A stretch of DNA of 64,000 nt from Escherichia phage vB_EcoM_R5505. A program made the position numbers and the translations under genes. Location of the stretch: sequence record MK373786.1; one strand, written 5' to 3'. Shown one piece after another: positions 40,720 through 41,175 of this stretch (position 1 is the first letter of the stretch; every line of letters starts with the position of its first letter). The notes beneath the pieces were generated by a model. The model was not told where the DNA came from. It made no database searches and saw only the letters and a program-made list of their open reading frames with translations.

Positions 40720-41175
40720 TTATTTTAAATCATCTGCCCAATCGAGTTTAAGAGGCTCTCTGTATTCACGATCTAATACGACCGGAATTTGTACATCACC
40801 GCTAAATGATAAGGGCCCAACATTATAAGACAATGTTATATGCGGTGTGTAATCATCAAAATCATGTGTAGCACCTAGTGCCCGCGCATACATGTGTCGA
40901 CAACGCAGATATTCAGAATCTAGCACAAGTACAAGAGTCGATCCATCTTGTGTTTTCCATACTTCTAAATGTCCAGAAGAAGCTACTTCAAAACTTCCAC
41001 TCGATGGAACATATGGAACATTTACTCTCGAATAACATATGGTCGAATGAATTTTTTCTCTAGGAACTGGATTAGGAACACGTAAAGAGCGCTGAAGTTC
41101 TTCCAGCGCATCAAGTGTTAATTCTGAAAACTTAGCTGCTACATAAAGACCCGTTGAAAAGTCTTTAAATTCCAT
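40720..41175 (-). CDS. 57B: 2H phosphoesterase-fold protein, 151 aa (T4 57B position; Acb1-type cyclic-nucleotide phosphodiesterase)
   Basis: Two H-x-T/S-x motifs (HSTICY and HITLSY); located directly upstream of 57A. Confidence 0.7.

Follow-up and report, generated by a model that had tools for sequence, protein, structure and literature searches.

Anti-CBASS protein 1 (Acb1) was described by Hobbs et al. (2022), who traced a 3'3'-cGAMP-degrading activity by activity-guided fractionation to gene 57B of phage T4 and gave the enzyme its name (PMC9117128). Acb1 has the 2H phosphoesterase fold, and the structures of the Erwinia phage FBB1 protein are compact with a C-terminal lid formed by residues 145–152 (PMC9117128). 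An HxT/HxT tetrad of H44, T46, H113 and T115 forms the active site; base stacking is provided by Y12, W74, F107 and W147, and the sole base-specific contact is made by E141 to the adenine N6 (PMC9117128). The T4 protein has been shown to cleave cyclic di- and trinucleotides that contain adenosine, without any need for metal, and activity is abolished by the H44A/H113A substitutions (PMC9117128). A T4 delta-acb1 phage grows normally where CBASS is absent, and its plating is reduced more than 300-fold on CBASS hosts (PMC9117128); likewise, in a transposon screen 57B/acb1 was dispensable on K-12, whereas on a CBASS host it was depleted and found to be conditionally essential (10.1101/2025.11.20.689424). 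Acb1 activity sets in at about 15 min of T4 infection (PMC9117128), which fits with the predominantly middle and late expression of acb1 recorded in a transcriptome atlas (10.64898/2026.03.30.715471). Guard systems such as Panoptes restrict phages that have a working Acb1 (PMC13577387). Acb1 resembles the LigT/ThpR RNA 2',3'-cyclic phosphodiesterases and the poxvirus cGAMP phosphodiesterases in having two HxT/S motifs together with the 2H fold, and the poxvirus enzymes are reported to be homologous to Acb1 by structural comparison (PMC12064943).

The window analysed here is a stretch of 64,000 nucleotides from Escherichia phage vB_EcoM_R5505 (record MK373786.1). Its minus strand carries an open reading frame of 151 codons, beginning with ATG, at 40720..41175, and an earlier note on this DNA had assigned this frame to an Acb1-type 2H phosphoesterase. 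The ORF listing and translation show that the coordinates, the length and the two H-x-T motifs given in that note were all correct: exactly two copies of H-x-[TS] occur in the protein, namely HSTI at residue 43 (part of HSTICY) and HITL at residue 112 (part of HITLSY). Of the 47 ATG-initiated ORFs of 100–200 amino acids within the window, 2 have at least two such motifs, the mean being 0.29 per 151 amino acids, and the motif pair by itself is weak evidence for the identity of the gene, suggestive only. A profile search gave a full-length match to Pfam PF23474 (Acb1; anti-CBASS protein 1) at 201.8 bits (E = 5.2e-60; the curated gathering cut-off is 27 bits), with residues 8–149 spanning profile positions 1–144 of 144, and it is this match that we take as decisive for identifying the ORF as acb1. 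Acb1 was the only Pfam family matched at E <= 0.1, LigT and the other 2H families being absent from the result. The gene has conserved counterparts in 1470 phage records. Three ORFs of 61, 47 and 38 amino acids on the plus strand, antisense to acb1, were also considered; they were rejected, being unsupported and lying across a coding frame that is strongly conserved. An Rfam scan of 36000..44000 found nothing in or beside acb1, the tRNA cluster alone being detected.

The DNA around acb1 shares 99.9% identity with Escherichia phage teqdroes and 98.3% with T4, and because of this flanking identity we assign the window to Tequatrovirus. The gene order on the minus strand, gene 1 (dNMP kinase, PF21448) – 57A (PF17594) – 57B – ipI (PF11634), is the same as in T4, and in the T4T annotation the gene at this position is named 57B. 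T4 Acb1 (gp57B, NP_049750.1) has the same residue at 150 of the 151 positions, including all of the catalytic, base-stacking and lid residues. The T4T and R5505 proteins differ by K139R (K140 in T4 numbering) and by the first of the two methionines annotated for T4, which is missing here; across the gene there are four nucleotide differences from T4. The product is 151 amino acids long here, and not the 152 annotated in T4, because the T4 sequence ATGATGG is ATAATGG in R5505, which leaves only the second ATG. That second ATG suffices as the acb1 start in R5505, and it may be the real start of 57B in T4 too. The assignment of the R5505 protein to Acb1 is supported by the Pfam match, by its near-identity to the T4 protein, and by the published identification of T4 gene 57B as Acb1 (PMC9117128). 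On the strength of these comparisons the R5505 protein is the ortholog of T4 gp57B, with which the Acb1 family was founded.

We found all nine of the residues that Hobbs et al. (2022) named for catalysis or binding in the R5505 protein. The catalytic tetrad is present as H43/T45 and H112/T114 (H44, T46, H113 and T115 in T4 numbering), the aromatic residues that stack on the nucleobases as Y11, W73, F106 and W146 (T4 Y12, W74, F107 and W147), and the residue that contacts the adenine N6 as E140 (T4 E141). The C-terminal lid segment LDWADDLK, residues 144–151, is the same as in T4 (145–152 in the published lid numbering). The earlier note had named loss of the catalytic histidines as an observation that would speak against Acb1, and it can be seen that H43 and H112 are both kept. 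In an alignment of 10 homologs of down to 39% identity, drawn from Tequatrovirus, Krischvirus, Tulanevirus, Lazarusvirus, Schizotequatrovirus, Muldoonvirus and unclassified T4-like phages, no variation is seen at H43, T45, H112, T114 or Y11, and very little at E140 or W146.

The closest PDB entries are those of the FBB1 Acb1, 7T26 (apo) and 7T27 (with 3'3'-cGAMP), which were matched at E = 5.2e-62 with 68% identity over 141 residues and without large gaps. The alignment with characterised Acb1 proteins that the earlier note proposed as a check is favourable for both the T4 and the FBB1 enzymes. FBB1 Acb1 has the same HxT/HxT tetrad, the glutamate ahead of the lid and the tryptophan in the lid; however, it has F and Y at the stacking positions where T4 and R5505 have W73 and F106, it has serine at the position of R139, and it carries a one-residue insertion past the fourth strand region. 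The remaining PDB matches are distant and are themselves named Acb1 (9Q2G and 9Q2Y, E = 0.004–0.03). Neither the Pfam nor the PDB searches gave a sequence-level match to the LigT/ThpR or poxvirus phosphodiesterase families. A single-sequence AlphaFold2 model of the R5505 product was too poor to judge the fold (mean pLDDT 37.5, pTM 0.30), and we infer a compact 2H phosphoesterase fold from the identity to the solved 7T26 structure across the aligned residues. By analogy with the FBB1 structure, the lid of the R5505 protein would be expected to close over the ligand.

We regard it as nearly certain that this ORF is a Tequatrovirus acb1 that codes for an anti-CBASS phosphodiesterase, where the biochemistry is that shown for the T4 and FBB1 proteins and is carried over to R5505 from near-identity to the T4 protein. 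The product would be a small, metal-independent phosphodiesterase of the 2H phosphoesterase fold, predicted to bind CBASS signals that are cyclic di- or trinucleotides with one or more adenosines, such as 3'3'-cGAMP, cUA, cAAA and cAAG. Its aromatic residues would stack on the bases of the signal while the C-terminal lid shuts over the ligand, and the two HxT motifs would then cut the 3'-5' bond on the 3' side of adenosine by acid-base catalysis, via a 2',3'-cyclic phosphate intermediate. The linear oligonucleotide produced should be unable to activate CBASS effectors, so that abortive infection would not be triggered. An intact acb1 predicts resistance of the phage to CBASS signalling by adenosine-containing 3'-5' cyclic di- and trinucleotides, and it also predicts sensitivity to guards such as Panoptes.

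Database labels point to a different role, in which the product would be an RNA ligase or a LigT/ThpR-like RNA 2',3'-cyclic phosphodiesterase that serves RNA or tRNA repair. The matching PHROG, phrog_755, is labelled 'RNA ligase', RefSeq orthologs carry either that name or 'putative RNA 2',3'-cyclic phosphodiesterase', the 2H fold is common to LigT-type enzymes (PMC9117128), and the distance from acb1 to the tRNA cluster of the phage is about 2 kb. However, these labels are transfers of annotation at the level of the superfamily and not experiments, and the specific Pfam match is to Acb1, with no LigT or other 2H family at the threshold given above. Moreover the T4 protein, which is one residue apart, degrades CBASS signals and is needed on CBASS hosts only (PMC9117128; 10.1101/2025.11.20.689424). 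We consider a role in RNA repair very improbable, and nothing was found that contradicts the Acb1 reading of the R5505 protein. Among GenBank and RefSeq phage records the orthologs are mostly named 'hypothetical protein' or 'RNA ligase', and a few are called 'cyclic phosphodiesterase' or 'putative phosphodiesterase'; the two common labels are superfamily-level or outdated annotation. An anti-CBASS gene of this kind is already known and the R5505 locus is an intact T4-type acb1 that implies no new biology. Its main relevance is to annotation, since public records still give other names to an anti-CBASS nuclease that has been defined by experiment.

The one amino-acid position at which the R5505 protein departs from its closest relatives deserves separate consideration. 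Residue 139 is lysine in T4, teqdroes and 303Ecol101PP, and the A-to-G change at nucleotide 416 that produces K139R is the sole difference between the acb1 genes of R5505 and those of teqdroes and 303Ecol101PP. No identical acb1 gene was present among 50,697 phage records (best match 99.8%), and the R139 allele was absent from them. This absence, together with the position of R139 directly beside E140, the counterpart of the residue that makes the sole base-specific contact, and the finding that phages mutate acb1 to escape Panoptes (PMC13577387), might point to an allele with altered substrate range or impaired function, for example one that escapes guards which, like Panoptes, act through decoy signals. 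Against this, column 139 of the 10-homolog alignment is freely variable (K/Q/S/V/L/I) in proteins that keep the rest of the site, lysine to arginine is a conservative change, and the reading frame and all of the catalytic and binding residues of the R5505 protein are intact. In addition, the natural disruption of acb1 in Bas43 is a nonsense mutation, and the mutations of Bas35 escapers were described as predicted to deactivate acb1 (PMC13577387). Because the column varies freely and the exchange is conservative, we read K139R as a presumably neutral polymorphism, with a low probability of any functional effect; an allele altered or impaired in this way we hold to be exceedingly unlikely. We give just as little credence to the narrower idea that K139R might tune substrate preference or turnover, for instance such that Panoptes is triggered less while anti-CBASS activity is kept.

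The gene directly 5' of acb1 is 57A, which encodes the tail-fibre assembly chaperone gp57A (41175..41417, minus strand; Pfam PF17594 GP57, E = 5e-51). The earlier note had placed 57B directly upstream of 57A. This holds in plus-strand coordinates only; 57A and 57B are both encoded on the minus strand, where 57B comes next after 57A and is the downstream gene. At the junction (41173..41179, minus strand; GAATAATGG) the TAA stop codon of 57A and the ATG of acb1 have one base in common (TAATG, read as GAA TAA TGG), whereas the T4 junction is ATGATG with TGA as the 57A stop. T4T, teqdroes and 303Ecol101PP share the 57A–57B arrangement. As annotated, stop and start codons also abut or overlap behind a named fibre-chaperone gene in six homologous loci (PECP20, Wolf_ER13, VP8, Skers, 60AhydR15PP and Berthold) from other Straboviridae genera and unclassified T4-like phages; a seventh locus, that of Vibrio phage PC-Liy1, has the same arrangement but its upstream gene is unnamed. 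A consensus scan found no promoter between 57A and 57B, which overlap. It is likely that acb1 is co-transcribed with and translationally coupled to 57A, given the overlap of the two codons at the junction, the lack of space for an intervening promoter and the recurrence of the arrangement.

Across 39900..43800 the scan returned 15 sigma-70-like sites against 14.4 expected from shuffled sequence, and the T4 late-promoter motif TATAAATA is likewise at chance level in the window (11 copies against 10.25), its nearest copy to acb1 being at 41773..41780, within gene 1. The 72-nucleotide spacer between acb1 and ipI holds a promoter-like site, TTTACA-17-TACTAT, in which TG precedes the second hexamer (40678..40706, minus strand), and an identical site (40311..40339, minus strand) precedes an additional internal-protein gene described below; both are consensus matches only, of a kind no more frequent than in shuffles. 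The site at 40678..40706 likely marks the start of a separate ipI transcript, and acb1 would thus be the last gene of its transcription unit. The repetition of the site suggests that each ip gene may have its own promoter, the repeated promoter being cassette-like.

The next gene downstream of acb1 is ipI (40360..40647, minus strand), which codes for internal protein I (Ip1) and matches Pfam PF11634 IPI_T4 (E = 7e-54) and phrog_4363. The injected Ip1 protein blocks type IV restriction by GmrSD, further GmrSD variants are the targets of Ip2 and Ip3, and the ip region has been called a genomic hotspot for injected anti-defence proteins by the authors of that work (PMC12373910). The Pfam match and the known activity of Ip1 agree with the claim that the neighbouring ipI is an anti-restriction gene. 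A second internal-protein gene lies between ipI and the trna.4 homolog at 40041..40274 on the minus strand; it encodes 77 amino acids from an ATG (MKTYQEFIAEA...), extends to a GTG at 40292 in the ORF listing, and matches phrog_8111 'internal virion protein' (E = 2e-50). This gene is missing in T4T and present in teqdroes and 303Ecol101PP; in total it was found in 245 phage records, in a single one of which it is named ip6. It is part of a variable ip locus beside acb1, and by analogy with Ip1, Ip2 and Ip3 its product could inhibit another GmrSD variant. The description of the locus as a counter-defence cluster stands for the downstream side, where ipI and the second internal-protein gene are found, but it does not extend upstream, where the 57A chaperone and the gene 1 dNMP kinase are followed by the tail terminator and then by gp2, the DNA-end protector (42829..43653; phrog_429). 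We conclude that the cluster is a short accessory stretch, made up of acb1 and the ip genes, that is set among core genes.

Some observations were also made on the tRNA region nearby. A minus-strand ORF of 171 amino acids (38578..39093), which falls in phrog_2290 of unknown function and had no Pfam match, lies between tRNA-Gln and the trna.2 homolog. It appears to be a variable element inserted at one end of the tRNA cluster, since no gene is annotated at this position in T4T, teqdroes or 303Ecol101PP. T4T has segB in the corresponding tRNA cluster and teqdroes has another homing endonuclease there, whereas no homing endonuclease is present inside the R5505 cluster. The R5505 tRNA set is also unlike that of T4; 11 tRNAs, for Arg, His, Asn, Tyr, Met, Thr, Ser, Pro, Gly, Leu and Gln, are encoded on the minus strand at 37474..38491.
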